From the IMG/VR virus record IMGVR_UViG_2740892231_000005: a DNA stretch of 49,646 nucleotides; one strand, written 5' to 3'. The notes under the pieces were generated by a model, which was not told the origin of the DNA, searched no databases, and worked only from the letters and a program-made list of their open reading frames with translations. The number at the start of each line of letters is the position of its first letter. Position 1 is the first letter of the stretch. This document shows positions 19,727-40,284 of the stretch, one piece after another. The position numbers and the translations under genes were made by a program. The stretch is from a virus. Taxonomy: Duplodnaviria; Heunggongvirae; Uroviricota; Caudoviricetes.

Positions 19727-21583
19727 CTATATGGTTACGCCTTTACTTATAACTCTACGGCGTCTTCTACGTATACCTGACGAGTTCTGCACATACACAT
19801 TACCTCGCATTTCCTGTTCGGCAAGCCAGTTAAAATTAGGGTTCAGAATTTCCATCGCGGCAGTTGCATAGTTACGGCAATCAAGAGGCTCGTTACGCTC
19901 GTAGACTTTCACCCACTTTTCTTTTGTCTGCCCATTTTTATATTCAAATATTTTCTTCTCTGATAATAATCCTTTAAAGTATTCGGTATCATATCCTCTG
20001 TCAGAATCTAATGGGAAATGCATATAACCAGGACCAGGATCATGTAGTTTAATTCTTGCCATGATGGTCCCTTTACCATCATCAACCCCCAAATTAAACA
20101 ACATAGCACCCACACGGTTATTATTACTTGGCTTTCCTATAAATGGTAAACCTACCCCACCACGCCCCCTGATAGAGTATATTCGCCTTGATTCTCTCGG
20201 CTTAGTAAAGCGATATACCTCTGTCGTAAAATGCCCACCAGAGTCAATACAAACGGAAGAAATCTGTAATTTTCGACCGTCACGGAATGACCAGCTACGG
20301 AGTAAGTATTCATCAAGTTGTTTCCAGACAACATCTTGTGCGGGATCACCTGGGAATATTTTATATTCTATCCCCCATGACTCCTTACCTTTTCCCCAAC
20401 CGACCAATTCACAAACTAAATACGTGTCCTGTACGTCAACACCAGCACTTAACAATAAAACATCATCTGGTAAAAACTCTTCAAACCTTATTCTGCGTTG
20501 CAACAAGTATTCAGGATCGATATCGTCTTTAGCATCCTCTTTCCATGGCTCACCCAGCTTAAGGTTAATAAACTCCATTAATCCATTTTTATCGCGGTTT
20601 CTGGTTGCTTCCGTAAATTCTTCAACCAGCTCTGACAATGCAACCCACGGGGAGTAAAGACTGTTAATATGAAAACCAACAATACCTTTAACTCCAGTAT
20701 GTTCAGCTATCCATACCCCCTTCGCCAACCAATCAACGTCTGGTTTACCAGATCCGCGCATAATCCCGCCGCACTCACAGCACTCATATCTGGCCGTTTC
20801 CGGTAACGCCTCACCTGAATCGCTCTTATCCCATCTGACTTGCGACCATTTCATCACCTGCATGGTGCCACAACATGGGCAAGGAACATGGTAGTAACGC
20901 TGATCGGAGAGCTTAAACCACTTGTGGATTTTGCTCGTTTCCTCCAAAACAGGAGTAGAAACAAAAACTTTCTTACGATTATGAAAGTTGGTAGTACGCT
21001 GAATACCTAGTTTTAGTGGGTCGCCCTCCTGCGTCACACCGTAACGATCAATCTCATCAGCTAACAGTATTCGAATTGGCCTGGATGCAAGACCTGCTGG
21101 GGAATTAGCACCAACAAGTGCTATATATCCACCAGCGTAATGCTTCATACGTATAGTCGTGCTGGACTTTTTGGCTGCACCGCGCCCCTCTTTCCCTTCA
21201 TGCAGCTTGTGTTTCAAACCAGGGGAATATTTGAACGTCGGATCAATACGCTCTTTTGAAAAAGCCTCAGCCGCCTCTACCGTTGGATAAATCATCAACT
21301 GAGGAGATGGCTCCTGATCTGCAAAGTAACCCATAACATTTAGCTGTAATTCGGATTTACCAATTTGCGAGCTACATTGCATCACTACTGTTTCTGTATC
21401 AGCGTCACCAATAACATCCATTGGTTCACGCAAATATGGCACTCGGCTTGTACGCCACGGCCCTGGCTCTGGAGACGTTCCCGGCGCTACATGACGATAC
21501 TTATCAGCCCATTCGGAAACAGTTAGCCGTGATTTAGGGCGAAGCGCACGGAAAAAAGCGGTGCTCCATACTGTTTCGCCCAT
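19727..21583 (-). CDS. terL: Terminase large subunit, lambda GpA family
   Basis: 618 aa; Cys cluster (CPCCG...CCECG) and overall GpA-like organisation. Confidence 0.9.
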   Translation of the reverse strand: MGETVWSTAFFRALRPKSRLTVSEWADKYRHVAPGTSPEPGPWRTSRVPYLREPMDVIGDADTETVVMQCSSQIGKSELQLNVMGYFADQEPSPQLMIYPTVEAAEAFSKERIDPTFKYSPGLKHKLHEGKEGRGAAKKSSTTIRMKHYAGGYIALVGANSPAGLASRPIRILLADEIDRYGVTQEGDPLKLGIQRTTNFHNRKKVFVSTPVLEETSKIHKWFKLSDQRYYHVPCPCCGTMQVMKWSQVRWDKSDSGEALPETARYECCECGGIMRGSGKPDVDWLAKGVWIAEHTGVKGIVGFHINSLYSPWVALSELVEEFTEATRNRDKNGLMEFINLKLGEPWKEDAKDDIDPEYLLQRRIRFEEFLPDDVLLLSAGVDVQDTYLVCELVGWGKGKESWGIEYKIFPGDPAQDVVWKQLDEYLLRSWSFRDGRKLQISSVCIDSGGHFTTEVYRFTKPRESRRIYSIRGRGGVGLPFIGKPSNNNRVGAMLFNLGVDDGKGTIMARIKLHDPGPGYMHFPLDSDRGYDTEYFKGLLSEKKIFEYKNGQTKEKWVKVYERNEPLDCRNYATAAMEILNPNFNWLAEQEMRGNVYVQNSSGIRRRRRRVISKGVTI

Positions 21584-21588
21584 GAGGT

Positions 21589-22149
21589 TTATTCTTCCTG
21601 CTTAATAAATCGGGATTCCTGGAGCGCCTGAAGCGCAAAATTAATCTCGTCTTCAATAATGCGTTCGATCTCCCTGGCTGTTTTGCCTTCACAACGGGGA
21701 GCTGCTCTTGGAGCAATACTAAATAAGCGGCTACGCAATTCATTAGCTGCCAGAAATGCATCATCCCTGACCGCATCTTTAGCGATGAGAGAGCCTTCCT
21801 TTTCTTCAAATTCAAGGCGTTTCAGCTTTGCCTGATAAATTTTTTCTGCGGTCTTAGCCTTGTTGAATTGCACCGCAACACCGGAAGTACCACCAGCTAA
21901 TCCGGCATCATCAGCGGGTAACTCTGGTTGTTCCGAAGATATCCCATGCCCTCTTTTTCCATTTTCAGCAGATACCTCACGACCAACCTGTCGGCTCGCT
22001 TCATAAGCCGCACTGGCTTTATCAAAATCCAGCTTGCCGCTTTTCAGCACTGGAATGCGACCGGAACGACAGAGCTTCGTAACCATTGCCGGAGAAATAC
22101 CTTTCCGGCGAGCAAACTCTGACTTACTGACGATGGCCATTACTTGCAA
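21589..22149 (-). CDS. Terminase small subunit (Nu1-like, HTH)
   Basis: 186 aa; N-terminal HTH (SKSEFARRKGISPAMVTKLCRSGRIP); immediately upstream of terL. Confidence 0.65.
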   Translation of the reverse strand: MQVMAIVSKSEFARRKGISPAMVTKLCRSGRIPVLKSGKLDFDKASAAYEASRQVGREVSAENGKRGHGISSEQPELPADDAGLAGGTSGVAVQFNKAKTAEKIYQAKLKRLEFEEKEGSLIAKDAVRDDAFLAANELRSRLFSIAPRAAPRCEGKTAREIERIIEDEINFALQALQESRFIKQEE

Positions 22150-22730
22150 CCATTAGCAAGATACTGAACAAATCCCTCATGCGTTTCATGCGCGTCGTGG
22201 TACTGACGATAAACATCCAGCAACAATGCAATTTCCATATCCGTCGCGGGAATACGTTCTTTATCAATAGCCAGGTACTTAATTTGAACAACAGGGGAAG
22301 AATTATCGTCTTCTTCCTGCGGCTGTTCATCGCTTAACATTTCGTCAAGCTCTGCATCATTAAACCCAAGCAGATCAATATCAAAATCATCATCCATTAA
22401 CTCTTTGACTTCTTCGGCCAGAAGCTGCATATCCCAGCCAGCATTTAAGGCCAGCTTGTTATCTGCAATCCTGTAAGCCTTCTTCTGTTTTTCAGAAAGG
22501 TTACTCAACCGAATCGCCGGAACTTTATCCATTTCCAGAATTTCGGCTGCTGCAAGCCGACCATGCCCCGCAATCAGTTCATTCTTTTCATCGATCAGCA
22601 CAGGATTAGTGAAACCGAACTCACGGATACTGTTCACCAACTGTTCAACCTGCTCATCTGAATGAGTCCGTGAATTTTTGGCGTATCTGAGCAGCTTACC
22701 GACTGGTAAATATTCGATTTTTAGAGCCAT
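22140..22730 (-). CDS. ParB-like nuclease-domain protein (ParB/Srx fold)
   Basis: 196 aa; ParB N-domain motifs (LIAGHGRLAAA, KKAYRIADNKLALNAGW); paralogue of 25397..26020. Confidence 0.75.
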   Translation of the reverse strand: MALKIEYLPVGKLLRYAKNSRTHSDEQVEQLVNSIREFGFTNPVLIDEKNELIAGHGRLAAAEILEMDKVPAIRLSNLSEKQKKAYRIADNKLALNAGWDMQLLAEEVKELMDDDFDIDLLGFNDAELDEMLSDEQPQEEDDNSSPVVQIKYLAIDKERIPATDMEIALLLDVYRQYHDAHETHEGFVQYLANGCK

Positions 22731-23287
22731 TTTTTAACCGCCATAACACAACAGGTTAAAGAAAACTGTTTAACTTATTGATACTAAAAGAGAAAAATGA
22801 CGATCTTTTTACTCATAAAAAATCACACAAACCAGCATAATCATCTGATTTTATTAAGTTTTTATAAGTAAAAAGGATCTTGAGATGGTGTTTTGGTTAA
22901 AAGATTGGATGTATTTGCATGATTTATAACGATTTTTATCAGAACAACATCACATTGGTTAAAGATCTGCGCGTATCTTGATGATCTAAAAGAAAATTTT
23001 CTACTTTCTTTTTACCAGCACAAATACAGCAAAAAATCACGTTTTCCCGATATTTTTCAATGAGATGAGTAAATTTCTTTTACCGCAACTTTTAACCTAA
23101 CTTTTTTCACGTTTAGCTAGCCGAACATCGGGGTTCGAATGACCCGCATCCAACGCTTTTGGCCAGAAGGACCCAATTCTGCCGGACGATGAAACGATGC
23201 TCGTGCTCCCCCACAGACAGCCAGCGAGCGACGCTACAGAACACAGTGAATACACTCTGCATAACAACACCATCAACCACACGATGA

Positions 23288-24007
23288 TTAACGAGAGAAG
23301 GTCTTAGAAAGAATGTCATCAATAGCCTTTGTGACTTCATCAGCAAACGCATCCTCACCAGCACGCAGCGCCACGCCATGCCAATCAAGACGCTGCGAAT
23401 AGTTAGGTTGCTGGATAAACGTAAGGATCAACGTAGGACGCCGCCCAACGCGCTGCCAGACGCCTGGTTGAAGCGGGTTACTTGTACCAGGTCGAACAAC
23501 AAAAAACTCCGTAGGCTTGCCCTGACGGCGATTTTGATGCGCATCTCGCTGAACTCTTAGGCCAGATAAGACCTGCTGTAATTGCCCCCGCGAAATATTC
23601 CCGTATTTATCCAGCTTTGCGCCGGGACCAGGAGCAAGCTGCCAGCCGTTAGGCAAATATCCACCAGCCCTTAGCGCCCCTTCTGAGCGTTTGTACTGTC
23701 GTTGGCCACCTTCGATTTGCGGAGTCAACGTTACAGGGGCTGGCGTTCCTCCCCATTCACGAGCATACACAATGGCTGTAGGATCACTCTTCTTTGCGGC
23801 CAAAACGTAAGTAGAGTTCTGAATCCACGGCGTGGGCCTGTCAAATACCCGATTAATTTCATTCTTAATCGCAGCCTGAGAAGCCTTTGCCGTTCTGGTT
23901 GCCGCAAGCGCCATTGCGAACGGCAATTCGCGTTCTTCAAGGCGCTGGAGTTGTCGTTGAATATCCTGAGAAGAAAAATCCATCTTTATCTCAATTCTGT
24001 CAGCCAC
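23288..24007 (-). CDS. Hypothetical protein
   Basis: 239-aa ORF embedded in the ParB-like cluster; no recognisable domain. Confidence 0.45.
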   Translation of the reverse strand: MADRIEIKMDFSSQDIQRQLQRLEERELPFAMALAATRTAKASQAAIKNEINRVFDRPTPWIQNSTYVLAAKKSDPTAIVYAREWGGTPAPVTLTPQIEGGQRQYKRSEGALRAGGYLPNGWQLAPGPGAKLDKYGNISRGQLQQVLSGLRVQRDAHQNRRQGKPTEFFVVRPGTSNPLQPGVWQRVGRRPTLILTFIQQPNYSQRLDWHGVALRAGEDAFADEVTKAIDDILSKTFSR

Positions 24008-24023
24008 CAGCGCCTCCTACACA

Positions 24024-25403
24024 CTACTTAATCAACGGCCGGAAAGCCGCCAGCACATCATCAGATCGTCCGATTGTTGAACCACCAGGCAACGGCAACT
24101 CAAACTCAAAACGAACAGCTTTCTCCAGACTCGCCCAACTAAGGGAATCATCGTTAATGACGTGCAAATACCAGCTCTTACAGTTGAATATTGACCGCTT
24201 AATCCTGAAACCATGTACACGACACAACTGCTTCACTTCATCATCAGAATGAAACTTCTGGTAAAACCAGTGCCCCTTCCGGTACAACGCGGTAAAACCG
24301 TTATGATCAATAAAATAAAGCCGGCTTTTGGAACTCGCCGCTTGTGTTTGCTTCAGGACTGTTTCCAGCTCTCCACGGCTACGGCCAGAAAAGAATATTG
24401 ACCCACCAGCTTTACACAGGCCTTTCAGAACCGTCAGAACGGACCATTCAGCCTCGACACTATCGACCGAGTTCAAAACGCTATCGCAAATCACGTAGTC
24501 GTAACGCCCTCGCGTTTTTAAGTCGTCCACCAGCGTATCAATCATTCGGTTTGTTGCAGCCCTATCCAGAGTGTTTCCAGCGCCCTTACGGCGGAAAAGC
24601 TCGAGATCATGCAGGTTATATCCCTTTGCCCTGAGCATTCGCGCGTAGTCTCCCTGCCCCGAACCAAAATCAATTCCTCTTGGCGTCTTGGCAATAATCG
24701 GGAGGATCAACGACTCATACAGATTTGATTTCAGGCTGCCACCATTACGCAACCGCATAAGCTGCGCATACGTCTGGATGTATGTTGTTTTCTCCAGATG
24801 AGAATACTCAAATACACCATAAGTTTTATTCAGATAACTTTGGTATTTTTCCTTCTCAACATCAGGGATCACAAACACCGTTAGCGGTGTGCGCGTCATT
24901 TTCGCTGCTAATGCATACTGAGCACAGTGAATAACCTCACCAGACTGAGTAGCAACACAACCACCCCACGGACCATACTTGATAACCAGTTCCGCTATGT
25001 TCTTTCGAACATATGCCATTTTCGCGCGCATATTGCCTGAGATCTGGCTTGCCGATACCTGAACAAAACCATGCTTATCTTCCAGACCGGACACCCTGCA
25101 ACGCTCATCTCCGCTATCAAAATCCGTTCCGTTATGCAGTTGGTTAAACCGTACTTCGTCGTATACCGTCGTTTCACAGGGCAACACATACACCGCAGCA
25201 CGCGTTATTCCCAATTTACGTAGCGCCTTCGTCCTTTGGTGTCCCGCCACCAGCAAATCGCCGCGCACTATCAATGGCTTCACAAGCCCCAGCTCCCTGA
25301 CGCTTTCCGCCAGCCTCGCAAGATCATCCTCACCGATAAAACGCGGGTTATATTCCGCGCCGCGTAGGTGCGTTATGTCGTAATTGAGGTGAAGCATCAG
25401 CAC
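24024..25403 (-). CDS. ParB-like N-terminal domain fused to a class I SAM-dependent methyltransferase domain
   Basis: 459 aa; N-terminus LVAGHQRTKALRKLG (ParB-like); C-terminal half with GIDFGSGQGDYARML (motif I) and DYVICDSVLNSV; no DPPY/NPPY motif seen. Confidence 0.7.
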   Translation of the reverse strand: MLMLHLNYDITHLRGAEYNPRFIGEDDLARLAESVRELGLVKPLIVRGDLLVAGHQRTKALRKLGITRAAVYVLPCETTVYDEVRFNQLHNGTDFDSGDERCRVSGLEDKHGFVQVSASQISGNMRAKMAYVRKNIAELVIKYGPWGGCVATQSGEVIHCAQYALAAKMTRTPLTVFVIPDVEKEKYQSYLNKTYGVFEYSHLEKTTYIQTYAQLMRLRNGGSLKSNLYESLILPIIAKTPRGIDFGSGQGDYARMLRAKGYNLHDLELFRRKGAGNTLDRAATNRMIDTLVDDLKTRGRYDYVICDSVLNSVDSVEAEWSVLTVLKGLCKAGGSIFFSGRSRGELETVLKQTQAASSKSRLYFIDHNGFTALYRKGHWFYQKFHSDDEVKQLCRVHGFRIKRSIFNCKSWYLHVINDDSLSWASLEKAVRFEFELPLPGGSTIGRSDDVLAAFRPLIK

Positions 25404-26020
25404 ACCTCCCCAGCCAGCAATGCGGATACAAATCCGATATAGCTGCCATTATCATCAACATAACGAGACACCGCGCAGTCAAAACGATCCGCTTCCTCAT
25501 CCGTTGCCGGGATTTTATGACCTCCAAATGACAGGTACTGAACTTTTACGCCTGATTTGGCCTCATCCTTCTCAAATGGGATATCCATACCTTCTGTGTC
25601 ATCGTAGACCGCCACACTCAATAAGTTATCCAGTTCGCGCTGAGTAAAACCAATTGAGTCCAGAGCAAAATCATCGGCCGCAAGATCTGCAAGCTCCGCG
25701 CTTAACAACTCTTCATCCCAACCAGCATTCAGCGGAATACGGTTGTCGGCCAGACGATATGCCTTCTTCTGATTCTCCGTTAGCCCAGCCAGAACAATGC
25801 AGGGAACATCATCCATCCCCAACTGAGTGGCCGCAGCAATTCGACCATGACCAGCAATTACAACGTTGTTCTCGTCTATCAGGATCGGATTAGTCCATCC
25901 GTACTCCTGTATGCTGGCAACAATCTGATCTACCTGCTCCACGGAGTGTGTGCGAGCGTTCTTTTCATAACCAATCAACACAGAAAGTGGTAAAGAAACC
26001 ACATTAAGTTGTTTTGTCAT
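25397..26020 (-). CDS. ParB-like nuclease-domain protein, paralogue 2
   Basis: 207 aa; VIAGHGRIAAA, KKAYRLADNRIPLNAGW; about 50 percent identical by eye to the 22140..22730 product. Confidence 0.75.
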   Translation of the reverse strand: MTKQLNVVSLPLSVLIGYEKNARTHSVEQVDQIVASIQEYGWTNPILIDENNVVIAGHGRIAAATQLGMDDVPCIVLAGLTENQKKAYRLADNRIPLNAGWDEELLSAELADLAADDFALDSIGFTQRELDNLLSVAVYDDTEGMDIPFEKDEAKSGVKVQYLSFGGHKIPATDEEADRFDCAVSRYVDDNGSYIGFVSALLAGEVC

Positions 26021-26254: not shown

Positions 26255-26968
26255 TTACTCTGGTATCAAACAGATGTGGCCGTTATTTACCTCAATGCGA
26301 GAGTATCTCGGCTTACCATCCACGATTCCGGTAATGACAAGTTCGCCATCAGGCGACCATTCTTCTTTGTCGTCTTCAAGTACCGCGCCTTCTGGCAGAT
26401 CAATACAGGCAAAAACAGGACAGCCAGGATGACGTTTATCCTCCATCGCAATCAGCATCGACTCACCGAACCACTCTGTAGTAGCACGGCCATCAGCCGC
26501 CTGATAGTGAATCAGATACTGGTTTTCGCCATTTGCATACTGAGCACGGGCTTGAACTTCTCCCCATTCGTCACTGATACGCATTGTTACCAGTTGGGAT
26601 AATTCAAACTTAAACGGAACAGACTCTGCACCAATAGATATCGGTGAGTTTTCTCGCTGCTCTGGACCTTCACGCTTCACAATTTGAACATCTTTGACGA
26701 GCCAATCACCTGTGTTATCTACTTTTCGATACTCATCGGTATCAGGTAACTCAATAACACTCATCCCATCCGGGCAAAGCAACGATACATCTTTCGAAAC
26801 ACTGCGGATAATGCCGTTATTGTCATACATCATCTTTAAAGTGTGAGGCTGAAATTTCTTCTGCTCCTCATACCAATTTCTTCCGTCTTCAGTAAAAAGC
26901 GGTAGCACATCTGGATGTTTGCCGCGGGGATCAATAAGCGGCGCACTGATATTTTTTAAATGCATCAT
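26255..26968 (-). CDS. Orphan protein with tail-fibre-assembly (Tfa) N-terminal domain and an unrelated 130-aa C-terminal domain
   Basis: 237 aa; first ~105 aa align with both Tfa paralogues (MMHLKNI...GRNWYEEQKKFQPHTLKMMYD...SVIELPD). Confidence 0.6.
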   Translation of the reverse strand: MMHLKNISAPLIDPRGKHPDVLPLFTEDGRNWYEEQKKFQPHTLKMMYDNNGIIRSVSKDVSLLCPDGMSVIELPDTDEYRKVDNTGDWLVKDVQIVKREGPEQRENSPISIGAESVPFKFELSQLVTMRISDEWGEVQARAQYANGENQYLIHYQAADGRATTEWFGESMLIAMEDKRHPGCPVFACIDLPEGAVLEDDKEEWSPDGELVITGIVDGKPRYSRIEVNNGHICLIPE

Positions 26969-28351: not shown

Positions 28352-28466
28352 CGGGTTATCTCCGGTTTAACCAGGGCGGGTATCGCTCGGTTTCGGTTAT
28401 AACCTTAGGAAATTTTTTCCCACCCGTAAAGCACTTTTTATATAAATCTATAATTATATAATTCTA
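28352..28466 (-). promoter_or_regulatory. Repeated promoter/operator/leader cassette, copy 1
   Basis: About 110 bp near-identical to 35372..35490 and 45515..45630; ends in the TATAATTATA palindrome (28449..28458). Confidence 0.6.
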
Positions 28467-29051
28467 TGACACTTGCCAGAGAGCATCATGCAACTGGATA
28501 CCTCCGTTGCACTGGTTGCCCCAGCCATGCCAGCCATCAGGTAAATCACCGCGAGCAAACAGCTCAATACGAGGAACATCACCTAACAGTCTTACCAGCT
28601 TGTCACGAACCACATCAGGCTTCCGTGAATGTTCCAGACGAGGCGATGTAAACGACTGAATGATCCCCGCATCAAGGCGAGTCGGCAGTTTGCCTTTTAC
28701 CGCAAACAAGCAATCTTCACTGTTCGCACGAGTCATATGCCCCATCCCCATCACCAGCTTATCTGGCTGTCGGCTACCACATTTGTTCCATGTGAAGCCC
28801 TTCATGGTCATCAGCCTGAATCCCCATGCTTTCACCACCAGCAACGCTTCTTCTGGCTGAGTCGGAACCCACCACATGGCCAACAAACACGATTCAGGAT
28901 TAGCAAGCTGCCAGACAGGAATACGAGCAATCTCCTCAGCTTTCATCGTTGGATACTTAAAACCAGCTCCACGATTCCCATCCTTACACTTGTCTTTGTA
29001 TTCCCAGGGGGGATCTGCATAAATCAGATTAAACAATGCAATTGCCTCCAT
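28464..29051 (-). CDS. N6-adenine DNA methyltransferase, MT-A70 family
   Basis: 195 aa; DPPW motif in the N-terminus (LIYADPPWEY). Confidence 0.8.
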   Translation of the reverse strand: MEAIALFNLIYADPPWEYKDKCKDGNRGAGFKYPTMKAEEIARIPVWQLANPESCLLAMWWVPTQPEEALLVVKAWGFRLMTMKGFTWNKCGSRQPDKLVMGMGHMTRANSEDCLFAVKGKLPTRLDAGIIQSFTSPRLEHSRKPDVVRDKLVRLLGDVPRIELFARGDLPDGWHGWGNQCNGGIQLHDALWQVS

Positions 29052-29349: not shown

Positions 29350-29425
29350 GAGAGTGAATTGGTGGCCCCTACCGGATTTGAACCGATGACCGTGCGATTA
29401 TGAGTCGCCTGCTCTAACCACTGAG
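29350..29425 (-). tRNA. tRNA with CAU anticodon (Ile2/ileX-like, or Met)
   Basis: 76 nt; cloverleaf folds by hand (acceptor GGCCCCT/AGGGGCC, D-stem GCTC/GAGC, T-stem ATCGG/CCGGT, CCA end); one mismatch at the top of the anticodon stem. Confidence 0.8.
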
Positions 29426-29604
29426 CTAAGGGGCCATATTTGATCTGTTTGTCTGGTGTGGCGCCGCGCACGAAAATCCCAGCCAATAAATTCAGGATTT
29501 TTGGGCGCGGCGGCATATCAGACAAACATGGTTGATGCATGCGCTAATGAGAAAAGCGCATAGAATGTTGTAACTATATATTTATATAATTATAGAAATA
29601 TATA

Positions 29605-39320: not shown

Positions 39321-39338
39321 CACATGGAGTCTCGACAA

Positions 39339-39992
39339 ATGACTATCTCTGTAGGTATTTTCAACGGAAAAGGCGGCGTAACCAAATCAACAATTGCCCG
39401 TGCTTTAGCAGTTGCTTATGCAAAGGCTGGCTGGAATGTATGCCTGATCGATATGGATGTGCTTAACGGAACGGTAACGCGTTGGGTACAACGCAGAATG
39501 GCCAACAATATCGAACCAGCAATCGCGGCGCAGCCGTGCGGCACACCATCACAAGTCCAGAAAATCATCGAATCAGAAGTATACGACTTGGTTATCGTCG
39601 ATGGCGGTGCCTACGCATCTGAATCAGTACCGAAGCTCTCTGAATTTCTGGATATGGTTATTTTGCCAACCAGATTCTCTACCGATGACCTGGAAACCAC
39701 CGTTAACACAGCTCACGGCATCGTTAAAAAGGGTGTACCAATCAAGAAAATTTGCATGGTGTTTTCCGGCGCGGCTGAAAACGAAGCTGACTATATTGAA
39801 GCCCAAGAGTACCTGGCTAATACGCCATACTTTGTTGTCGATAAGTACATTCCCCACAAGCCAGCTCTGAGCAAAGCTCAGGATAAGGGCTTAAGCCTCA
39901 TTGAGTGCTCATACGTTGCGCCACGCAAAAAGGCAGACGACGTTATTCAGGGGATTATCAACCAGCTTGAGGCTCTGACTACTGCCGCGTAA
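39339..39992 (+). CDS. parA: ParA-family partition ATPase
   Basis: Deviant Walker A GKGGVTKST; start chosen at the second ATG with GGAG RBS (ORF track gives 39324). Confidence 0.8.
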   Translation: MTISVGIFNGKGGVTKSTIARALAVAYAKAGWNVCLIDMDVLNGTVTRWVQRRMANNIEPAIAAQPCGTPSQVQKIIESEVYDLVIVDGGAYASESVPKLSEFLDMVILPTRFSTDDLETTVNTAHGIVKKGVPIKKICMVFSGAAENEADYIEAQEYLANTPYFVVDKYIPHKPALSKAQDKGLSLIECSYVAPRKKADDVIQGIINQLEALTTAA

Positions 39993-40020: not shown

Positions 40021-40035
40021 TAAGAGGGGATGCAC

Positions 40036-40284
40036 ATGGCCGCACCATCAAAACCACCAAAGAAGAACAGCAAAGGCGTACCGCCATCGATCGAACAACC
40101 GCAGGTTTTCGACCCGACTGAAACGCCAACCAGAACCAAATCAGGTGGGGCACAAATGGCGTTTAACGTCGACCCTGAATTTAAACGCGAGTACAAAACG
40201 TTCGCCAGCTCAATGGATATGTCATTGAAAGAAGTGCTGACAAAATCTTTTGAGTTACTCAAGGCTCAATACAACCAGAAGTAA
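40036..40284 (+). CDS. ParG-like ribbon-helix-helix centromere-binding protein (type Ib partition)
   Basis: About 82 aa; disordered basic N-tail then RHH-like C-terminus (MAFNVDPEFKREYKTFASSMDMSLKEVLTKSFELL); directly after parA. Confidence 0.55.
   Translation: MAAPSKPPKKNSKGVPPSIEQPQVFDPTETPTRTKSGGAQMAFNVDPEFKREYKTFASSMDMSLKEVLTKSFELLKAQYNQK

Follow-up and report, generated by a model that had tools for sequence, protein, structure and literature searches.

Phage ParB-like proteins of 194–196 amino acids (aa), which have no DNA-binding domain, activate their cognate thymine dioxygenases on double-stranded DNA, and ParB genes had already been observed within DNA-hypermodification clusters (PMC13229309). 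Fusions of ParB with DNA methylases are also known and occupy the same terminase-proximal niche as the locus described here, as in a B. cereus prophage (PMC3592412). In addition, a fusion of a ParB-CTPase domain with a methyltransferase of the Methyltransf_23 family has been listed as enriched in phages and prophages, with no function given (bioRxiv 10.1101/2025.10.10.680097). Here we describe a locus encoding a fusion of this last type in the IMG/VR virus record IMGVR_UViG_2740892231_000005, a 49,646-nucleotide (nt) stretch of Caudoviricetes DNA that, taken whole, we call the window. The locus encodes two small stand-alone ParB-domain proteins, ParB207 and ParB196, a ParB-methyltransferase fusion (ParB-MT), and a 239-aa protein, p239; all are on the minus strand, as are the terminase genes, and lie between the lysis genes and the terminase. 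A preliminary description, made from the sequence alone, had placed four open reading frames (ORFs) at 25397..26020, 24024..25403, 23288..24007, and 22140..22730, in agreement with the ORF list.

The core of the locus is a conserved, translationally coupled two-gene cassette (PHROG 620 and PHROG 5475) formed by ParB207 (25397..26020, minus strand; 207 aa), a small orphan protein of the ParB/Srx fold, and its cognate partner ParB-MT (24024..25397, minus strand). The stop codon of ParB207 and the ATG of the fusion overlap as TGATG, and because of this overlap and a GGGGAGG Shine-Dalgarno sequence upstream, we take the ATG at 25397 as the probable start, giving a protein of 457 aa. The length of 459 aa proposed earlier is that of the longest ORF, which begins at 25403 and provides the residue numbering used below. 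In a census of 77 IMG/VR loci, added to those collected earlier, the cassettes fell into 51 clusters at 90% identity, 44 of which have at least 650 nt of upstream sequence. A small ParB gene lies upstream of the fusion in every one of these 44 non-redundant loci and is adjacent to it or overlaps it in 38. An upstream gene for a ParB_N protein of ∼200 aa is found likewise in Bradyrhizobium prophages, in metagenomic phages, and in the Bacteroides phage BS-TP3; in most of these the two genes are neighbors, and in Bradyrhizobium one gene intervenes. On the other side, at least 36 of the 44 loci have a terminase large subunit gene as the first large ORF downstream, and the encoded subunits belong to four families (16 GpA, 13 Terminase_6, 4 Terminase_3, and 3 TerL_ATPase). 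In the Bradyrhizobium prophages, ∼8 kb of opposite-strand genes part the cassette from the terminase.

One metagenomic protein of 658 aa (P0453) joins a small ParB to a full ParB-MT in a single chain, with residues 36–189 resembling ParB207 residues 32–203, C-terminal domain included, and residues 199–652 forming the ParB-MT part. This apparent natural fusion gives a Rosetta-stone hint that the two proteins work together, although there is just one example, which could reflect an error in gene calling. A third gene, p145, adjoins the fusion in 32 of the 51 clusters and is missing from the window and its enterobacterial relatives. Its product has no Pfam or PHROG match but does have invariant His and Cys residues, and its confident structural model resembles no solved structure convincingly. 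We considered p239 as a stand-in for p145 and rejected it, as the hhalign probability was 0.8% and p239 relatives occur without the cassette.

ParB-MT comprises three domains: a ParB-N domain of the nucleoside triphosphate (NTP)-binding type (residues 1–98; 25110..25403, minus strand), a middle domain (residues ∼104–196; 24816..25094, minus strand), and a class I S-adenosylmethionine (SAM)-dependent methyltransferase domain (residues ∼225–459; 24027..24731, minus strand). Residues 3–459 align with positions 1–457 of the 458 in PHROG 5475, a family of unknown function, at E = 1.6e-265. The structure prediction that the preliminary description had suggested gives a class I methyltransferase and a confident overall model (AlphaFold2; pLDDT 93.2, pTM 0.89). 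Motif I of the methyltransferase half, GIDFGSGQG, had been recognized from the start and is found at residues 243–251 (24651..24677), within a domain that scores 32.7 bits against Methyltransf_23 (gathering score 27). A fold search returned only small-molecule or tRNA methyltransferases as the closest structures to this domain. DNA amino-methyltransferase structures (N6_N4_Mtase, MT-A70, N6_Mtase) are absent from the top 50–60 fold matches, and the DNA cytosine-C5 methylase family (PF00145) appears neither as a Pfam match in 44 family members nor as a fold match. A sequence search of the PDB yielded ParB N-domains and weak generic methyltransferase matches and nothing else. The early caution about the substrate of this enzyme was thus well placed.

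This architecture is widespread and fixed. The fusion has 716 homologs in a database clustered at 90%, and at 50% identity there are at least 238 clusters (E up to 1e-30), nearly all of 450–490 aa and matching end to end; the family ranges from Enterobacteria and Bradyrhizobium to Bacteroides phages. We aligned 44 sequences of 45–73% identity to map conservation. In the ParB-N domain, N19, P20, and R21; G54, H55, Q56, and R57; and N87, Q88, H90, and N91 are invariant, the last group within an FNQLHNGT motif. The middle domain has an invariant WGG...H..QYA motif. In the methyltransferase domain, motif I (D245 F G x G249) and E268 followed by R271 and R272 are invariant, as are D307-V-N311-S-D314, R341, and R375. 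Because the SAM-binding motif I, the acidic residue of motif II, the arginine pair, and the other arginines are all retained, the methyltransferase appears to be active.

The predicted secondary structure elements of the middle domain follow the order and spacing of those of the ParB-N domain (strand, helix, two strands, helix, strand, helix), shifted throughout by ∼105 residues, and the middle domain has invariant H159..Q162 Y163 A164 at the position where the ParB-N domain has GHQR. It may therefore be a degenerate second ParB/Srx fold, or pseudo-ParB. This is a suggestion from the modeled structure without profile support, as comparison of the two halves with hhalign gave a probability of 0.6%.

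The preliminary description had proposed three ParB-N-domain genes, one of them fused to a methyltransferase, and profile evidence bears this out, with Box I, II, and III equivalents placing all three products in the ParB/Srx superfamily (PF02195). The Pfam ParB_N scores are 33.7 bits for ParB196, 24.3 for the fusion, and 23.9 for ParB207, against a gathering score of 26.3; the two matches below this score are backed by the NCBIfam models parB_part and Noc and by alignments with ParB, Spo0J, and Noc in the PDB that span Box I and Box II. ParB_N is matched in 44 of 44 family members. Box II (GxxRxxA) is present in all three proteins, as GHGRLAA, GHQRTKA, and, in ParB207, GHGRIAA, and the fusion compares with Spo0J/ParB as YNPR versus YQPR in Box I and GHQR versus GERR in Box II. 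In the small-ParB partner family, the N, GHxR, and DN residues are each conserved at 90% or more. The "nuclease" label first attached to these domains is merely an old Pfam name, and nuclease activity cannot be inferred from it. ParB196 and ParB207 match PHROG 620 at E = 4.6e-75 and 7.8e-74, respectively, and are paralogs, as proposed, with 48% identity over their whole length. They share one architecture, in which the ParB-N domain is followed by a helical segment, an acidic linker, and a small conserved C-terminal domain. The ParB-N domain of the fusion is more divergent, with 27% identity over 66 residues.

The company kept by small ParBs elsewhere provides the main indication of what the cassette may do. 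The first 135–150 residues of ParB196 and ParB207 match the N terminus of PHROG 498 and of PADLOC MTase_II at E = 1e-37 to 1e-52, and 402 phage records hold such a ParB segment, with DNA methylase as a frequent annotation. PADLOC itself assigns no defense system to the locus, since only the ParB portion of MTase_II is matched. We collected the 80 closest IMG/VR relatives of the small ParB with a seven-sequence alignment, and 43 of them are fused in cis to an enzyme, in every case N6_N4_Mtase. The stand-alone proteins have an adjacent or overlapping downstream gene in 36 of 37 cases, and these 36 genes encode members of the Mom family (11), TET-associated glycosyltransferase (TAGT; 10), N6_N4_Mtase (3), Tet_JBP (2), GNAT (2), the terminase small subunit TerS (2, both downstream of ParB196 orthologs, L098 and L099), and a few ATPases. 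The gene order is ParB, Mom, TerS, TerL in Psychrobacter phage Y8A and ParB, TAGT, then TerS and TerL in Escherichia phage vB_EcoS-613R10. From the fusion and neighbor counts together, ∼69 of the 80 relatives are linked to a DNA base-modifying enzyme, either physically or through translational coupling. Since the partners of this family are mainly DNA-modifying enzymes, we read the substrate of ParB-MT as most likely DNA, and of the three options offered in the preliminary description, a DNA modification or anti-restriction module, a packaging accessory, or something undescribed, it is DNA modification that gains strong contextual support. The last holds only in part, as the architecture had already been catalogued (PHROG 5475; bioRxiv 10.1101/2025.10.10.680097).

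The region as a whole is composite rather than a single module. ParB196 (22140..22730, minus strand; 196 aa) appears to be a duplicated small ParB that is now coupled to TerS; the two genes overlap as TAATG (ParB196 stop, TerS start), which would couple their translation, and the orthologs L098 and L099 are followed by TerS in the same way. TerS (21589..22140, minus strand) has 183 aa when read from the ATG at 22140, the RefSeq start, and matches PHROG 57 (E = 7.4e-42), with additional N-terminal matches of the helix-turn-helix (HTH) type; the ORF 21589..22149 (PHROG 57, E = 7e-42) overlaps the last ParB gene, so the terminase small subunit does adjoin the cluster as first noted. The large subunit (19727..21583, minus strand; RefSeq annotation) is of the lambda GpA type and matches the TerL of a related locus (L005), which carries GpA_ATPase and GpA_nuclease. 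The window thus has lambda-like packaging genes, a GpA-type TerL and a PHROG 57 TerS.

Between ParB196 and p239 lies a 557-bp non-coding gap (22731..23287) that contains a likely cos site. The start points of the records of two Yersinia phages, vB_YpM_41 and vB_YpM_44, differ by exactly 12 nt and flank GGTCATTCGAAC (23144..23133, minus strand), and this 12-mer falls within the best-conserved intergenic island (∼23100..23165), as judged from relatives whose fusions are 90% and 69% identical. Its flanking sequence, GGGTCATTCGAACCCCG, is partly palindromic and is the most conserved intergenic stretch in the relatives. From the record ends and this conservation, we infer that 23133..23144 is a putative 12-nt cohesive end (cosN core). 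The 402 bp between this site and parB196 (22731..23132, minus strand) form an AT-rich spacer with 5 of the window's 14 TTTAACC heptamers, a density 44-fold that of the rest, and in one relative (L019) the homologous spacer has 10 of its 13 copies of GTTAACC. Generic repeat finding in the spacer gave short two-copy families only. The heptamers suggest co-evolving binding sites, candidates for a cosB-like element recognized by TerS (or ParB196), of which a cosB for TerS would be simplest.

p239 (23288..24007, minus strand; 239 aa) matches PHROG 1924 (E = 2.5e-97), labeled "minor tail protein," and has no Pfam match; its ∼100 homologs are all unnamed and share the motifs vFDRPTP, GGxRxxKRxE, and LDxYGNISRGQ. 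Two of three distant homologs (L089, L090, L091) lie directly upstream of Nu1/GpA terminases and the third at a contig end, with no ParB or methyltransferase nearby in any case. These neighborhoods indicate that p239 belongs with cos and the terminase and not with the cassette. The grouping of all four genes into one cluster is therefore not supported: the p239 family occurs without ParB elsewhere, the putative cos intervenes, and ParB196 is coupled to TerS. As the gap is non-coding and has a likely cos, the four genes would not be one uninterrupted operon on packaged DNA, where ParB196, TerS, and TerL would be at the left end and ParB207, ParB-MT, and p239 at the right end.

Taken together, these data lead us to favor, with moderate confidence, a model in which ParB207 and ParB-MT, expressed late, form a module for ParB-assisted DNA modification whose methyltransferase is atypical, while ParB196 is a duplicated adaptor at TerS and p239 and cos are neighbors. 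The cassette, lying between the lysis cassette and the terminase genes, would be expressed with the late genes. Its effector would be the C-terminal class I SAM methyltransferase of the fusion, whose N-terminal ParB/Srx domain, with Box I, II, and III-type residues intact, could act as an NTP-binding switch. ParB207, with its NTP-binding domain, small C-terminal domain, and no recognizable DNA-binding HTH, would serve as cognate activator or DNA-loading partner, much as other ParBs activate phage thymine dioxygenases and as ParB modules occur in fusions with N6/N4 DNA methylases. The mark would be placed on progeny DNA just ahead of packaging or while it proceeds, and would most plausibly protect that DNA in the next host.

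Several observations weigh against this model. Even at E = 0.1, none of the 44 family members matches a DNA-methylase Pfam family, so that the profile hidden Markov model searches of ParB and methyltransferase families proposed at the outset turned up no well-characterized DNA methyltransferase family, and the (D/N/S)PP(Y/F/W) motif is missing from the fusion; the earlier remark that DPPY/NPPY is lacking extends to [DNS]PP[YFWH] in all of the cluster's proteins. The argument for DNA as substrate is one of guilt by association. The fusion owns a ParB domain already, and its need for a second ParB is unexplained. In the thymine dioxygenase system, mutation of NTP-binding residues had little effect (PMC13229309), and for this reason the NTP-switch part of the model may be wrong. 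The phage already has a canonical DNA methylase of the MT-A70 adenine type aboard, and a 27%-identical homolog in Brochothrix phage BtpYZU02 sits in a replication module with no small ParB upstream. We found no methylome or mutant data on the element in the literature.

A more ambitious version of the DNA-modification model, to which we give only limited credence, is that the Methyltransf_23-type domain installs a DNA methylation made by no known phage DNA methylase (not N6-A, N4-C, or C5-C, or else on the backbone or on a pre-modified base), under a two-ParB NTP switch timed to packaging and made up of ParB207, the ParB domain of the fusion, and a possible pseudo-ParB in its middle domain, with ParB196 recruited in addition by the terminase for cos recognition. 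It is likewise possible, if doubtful, that ParB-MT methylates something other than DNA, such as host or phage RNA (e.g., tRNA), a nucleotide or signaling nucleotide that the ParB/Srx domain binds, a small molecule, or a protein. The enzyme would then be an anti-defense or host-takeover factor regulated by the small ParB, and its position next to the terminase would be incidental. Such a role would suit the small-molecule and tRNA methyltransferases that are its nearest structures and the lack of any DNA-methylase signature, and the invariant arginines could bind any phosphate-bearing substrate. ParB/Srx folds also include ATP-using enzymes (Srx, SerK), and ParB-SAM methyltransferase fusions bound ATP in DRaCALA (bioRxiv 10.1101/2025.10.10.680097). 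The obligate partner argues for DNA instead, as ∼69 of the 80 relatives examined in its family are joined or coupled to DNA-modifying enzymes; a late-operon position would be unusual for host takeover, and PADLOC gives no defense or anti-defense match beyond the ParB part of MTase_II.

The position of the cassette invites another explanation, which we regard as rather unlikely, namely that the ParB-like proteins are packaging accessories at cos or pac, acting as a nickase or an NTP-gated clamp in an HNH-like manner, with the methyltransferase secondary or regulatory. Four unrelated terminase families follow the cassette, cos and headful types alike, and this speaks against a specific terminase partnership in spite of its place directly upstream of the terminase in so many loci. 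The intervening genes in the Bradyrhizobium prophages point the same way, as does the rarity of the fusion, which only 7 of 50,697 deposited phage genomes carry, that of the Brochothrix phage among them, so that most phages with these terminases do without it. An HNH endonuclease or TerS gene does lie directly 3′ of the fusion in 14 of 39 loci, ParB196 and its orthologs are translationally coupled to TerS, the heptamer array and putative cos are just upstream, and a ParB-methylase fusion with non-specific nicking activity has been reported (PMC3592412); against these, Pfam and NCBIfam detect no HTH or other DNA-binding domain in the small ParBs. Highly improbable, finally, is a function of the three ParB proteins in plasmid maintenance or transcription control, as a partition ParB or as KorB/Noc-like CTP clamps, even though RepA and ParA are encoded on the element, which is a plasmid prophage, and the ParB-N motifs match those of NTP-binding ParBs. 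All three proteins score far below the cut-off of the canonical partition family TIGR00180 (16–40 bits versus 58.45 bits, with coverage of the N-domain only), and no HTH, ParA-binding N-terminal motif, or adjoining parA was detected for them in Pfam, NCBIfam, or the ORF list. The cassette also occurs in integrated prophages and in lytic and temperate phages of several phyla. The ParA-family ATPase of the window (39324..39992, plus strand) is followed by an 84-aa protein with a ribbon-helix-helix-like C terminus (40030..40284, plus strand), and these two are probably the real partition system of the element, unrelated to the three ParB-N proteins; given that ParA comes with a small protein of its own, 14 kb from the cluster, the latter are not the partition proteins.

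The window is an E. coli phage-plasmid of ∼49 kb, a myovirus with probable lambda-type cos packaging. Its best match is p48 of strain 1428, which encodes RepA, ParA, toxin-antitoxin genes, and a lysis cassette, together with head and terminase genes of the lambda type and a contractile tail of the P2 type, and it is from this gene content that the phage-plasmid identity follows. A 4.8-kb region covering the locus is 99%–99.9% identical to circular plasmids of ∼48–50 kb and is present in 74 of 5,426 complete E. coli genomes, where 80 of 83 matching places are plasmid borne. Escherichia phage vB_EcoM-613R2 and Yersinia phages vB_YpM_39, vB_YpM_41, and vB_YpM_44 match the region as well; we found no mention of the Yersinia phages vB_YpM in the literature. 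Scans of the cluster for promoters and terminators gave nothing exceeding shuffled expectation.

Among the genes next to the cassette, an ORF of 237 aa (26255..26968, minus strand) matches tail fiber assembly proteins (Caudo_TAP, PHROG 136) in its N-terminal 100 residues and PHROG 1935 (function not assigned) in its C-terminal part. RefSeq has in its place a truncated tail fiber assembly pseudogene and a separate ORF, and the gene is stranded at a distance from the tail genes. At 28464..29051 (minus strand), 2.4 kb upstream of the cluster, is a gene for an MT-A70-family DNA adenine methyltransferase (PHROG 359; Pfam E = 2.4e-23) that has a DPPW motif. Between it and the lysis genes is a tRNA gene (29360..29435, minus strand) with anticodon CAT, called tRNA-Met by ARAGORN; its ortholog is tRNA-Ile in RefSeq.

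The architecture itself is not new, the locus being near-identical to dozens of sequenced plasmids and the family being represented in PHROGs as well as in a survey of ParB folds from 2025. What has gone undescribed in the literature we consulted is the obligate two-gene, and often three-gene, cassette, its near-universal place before different terminase families, and the argument from partner spectrum that would set a Methyltransf_23-type enzyme among ParB-associated DNA modification. Phage DNA modifications drive an arms race with restriction and other defenses, and biotechnology draws enzymes from them. Should ParB-MT act on DNA, its product may be an unrecognized DNA mark, and the cassette would offer a compact, testable model of the activation of DNA-modifying enzymes by ParB-like proteins. 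The element is common in clinical E. coli, as the genome count above indicates, and occurs also in plaque-forming Yersinia phages, and is hence experimentally tractable.

Set beside known systems, the three proteins have in common with the canonical ParB, Noc, and KorB CTPase clamps the ParB-N fold, Box I (NPR), Box II (GxxRxxA), and a Box III-like DN/N; they differ in having no HTH, ParA-binding motif, or adjacent parA and in their low partition-family scores. HNH endonucleases of the HK97 gp74 type occupy the same place just upstream of TerS and TerL, and it is this likeness that makes a packaging accessory role a rival for ParB196 in particular. The fold is different here, no nuclease motif is apparent, and the cassette accompanies more than one terminase family. 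M.EcoGIX/M.BceJIII, also considered as a model, was dropped because the paper on it does not deal with ParB fusions.

The resemblance is closer to the ParB-dependent thymine dioxygenases (5mYOX176/ParB176; PNAS 2026, PMC13229309), in which a ParB of ∼195 aa with no DNA-binding domain lies beside a post-replicative DNA-modifying enzyme and is needed for its activation. In that ParB, too, the NTP-binding domain is followed by a helical segment and a linker that leads to a small C-terminal domain, and 2 of the 36 partners of stand-alone small ParBs are Tet_JBP proteins. In contrast, the effector here is a SAM methyltransferase with a ParB domain of its own, activation by ParB207 would be by analogy, and ParB176 has been compared by length only. 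The closest stand-alone relatives, at 50%–61% identity, are the small ParBs paired with Mom or TAGT (Psychrobacter phage vB_PmaS_Y8A and Escherichia phage vB_EcoS-613R10), which overlap the downstream modifying gene just before TerS and TerL. Those effectors carry out acyl/carbamoyl-type modification or glycosylation and have no ParB domain, whereas methyl transfer is predicted here. Finally, the ParB-N6/N4 DNA methyltransferase fusions (PHROG 498, PADLOC MTase_II; e.g., the prophage of B. cereus ATCC 10987) couple ParB to a SAM methyltransferase, as does this locus, and their N-terminal module (∼135–150 residues, with a helical "ADN...GW...GF...EL" segment) is homologous to ParB196 and ParB207. 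In our locus, the homologous ParB module is instead a separate protein, and the enzyme carries a different ParB-N domain and a middle domain; it is also of the Methyltransf_23 type without a DPPY-type motif, so that its chemistry and target atom would be other than N6-A or N4-C.

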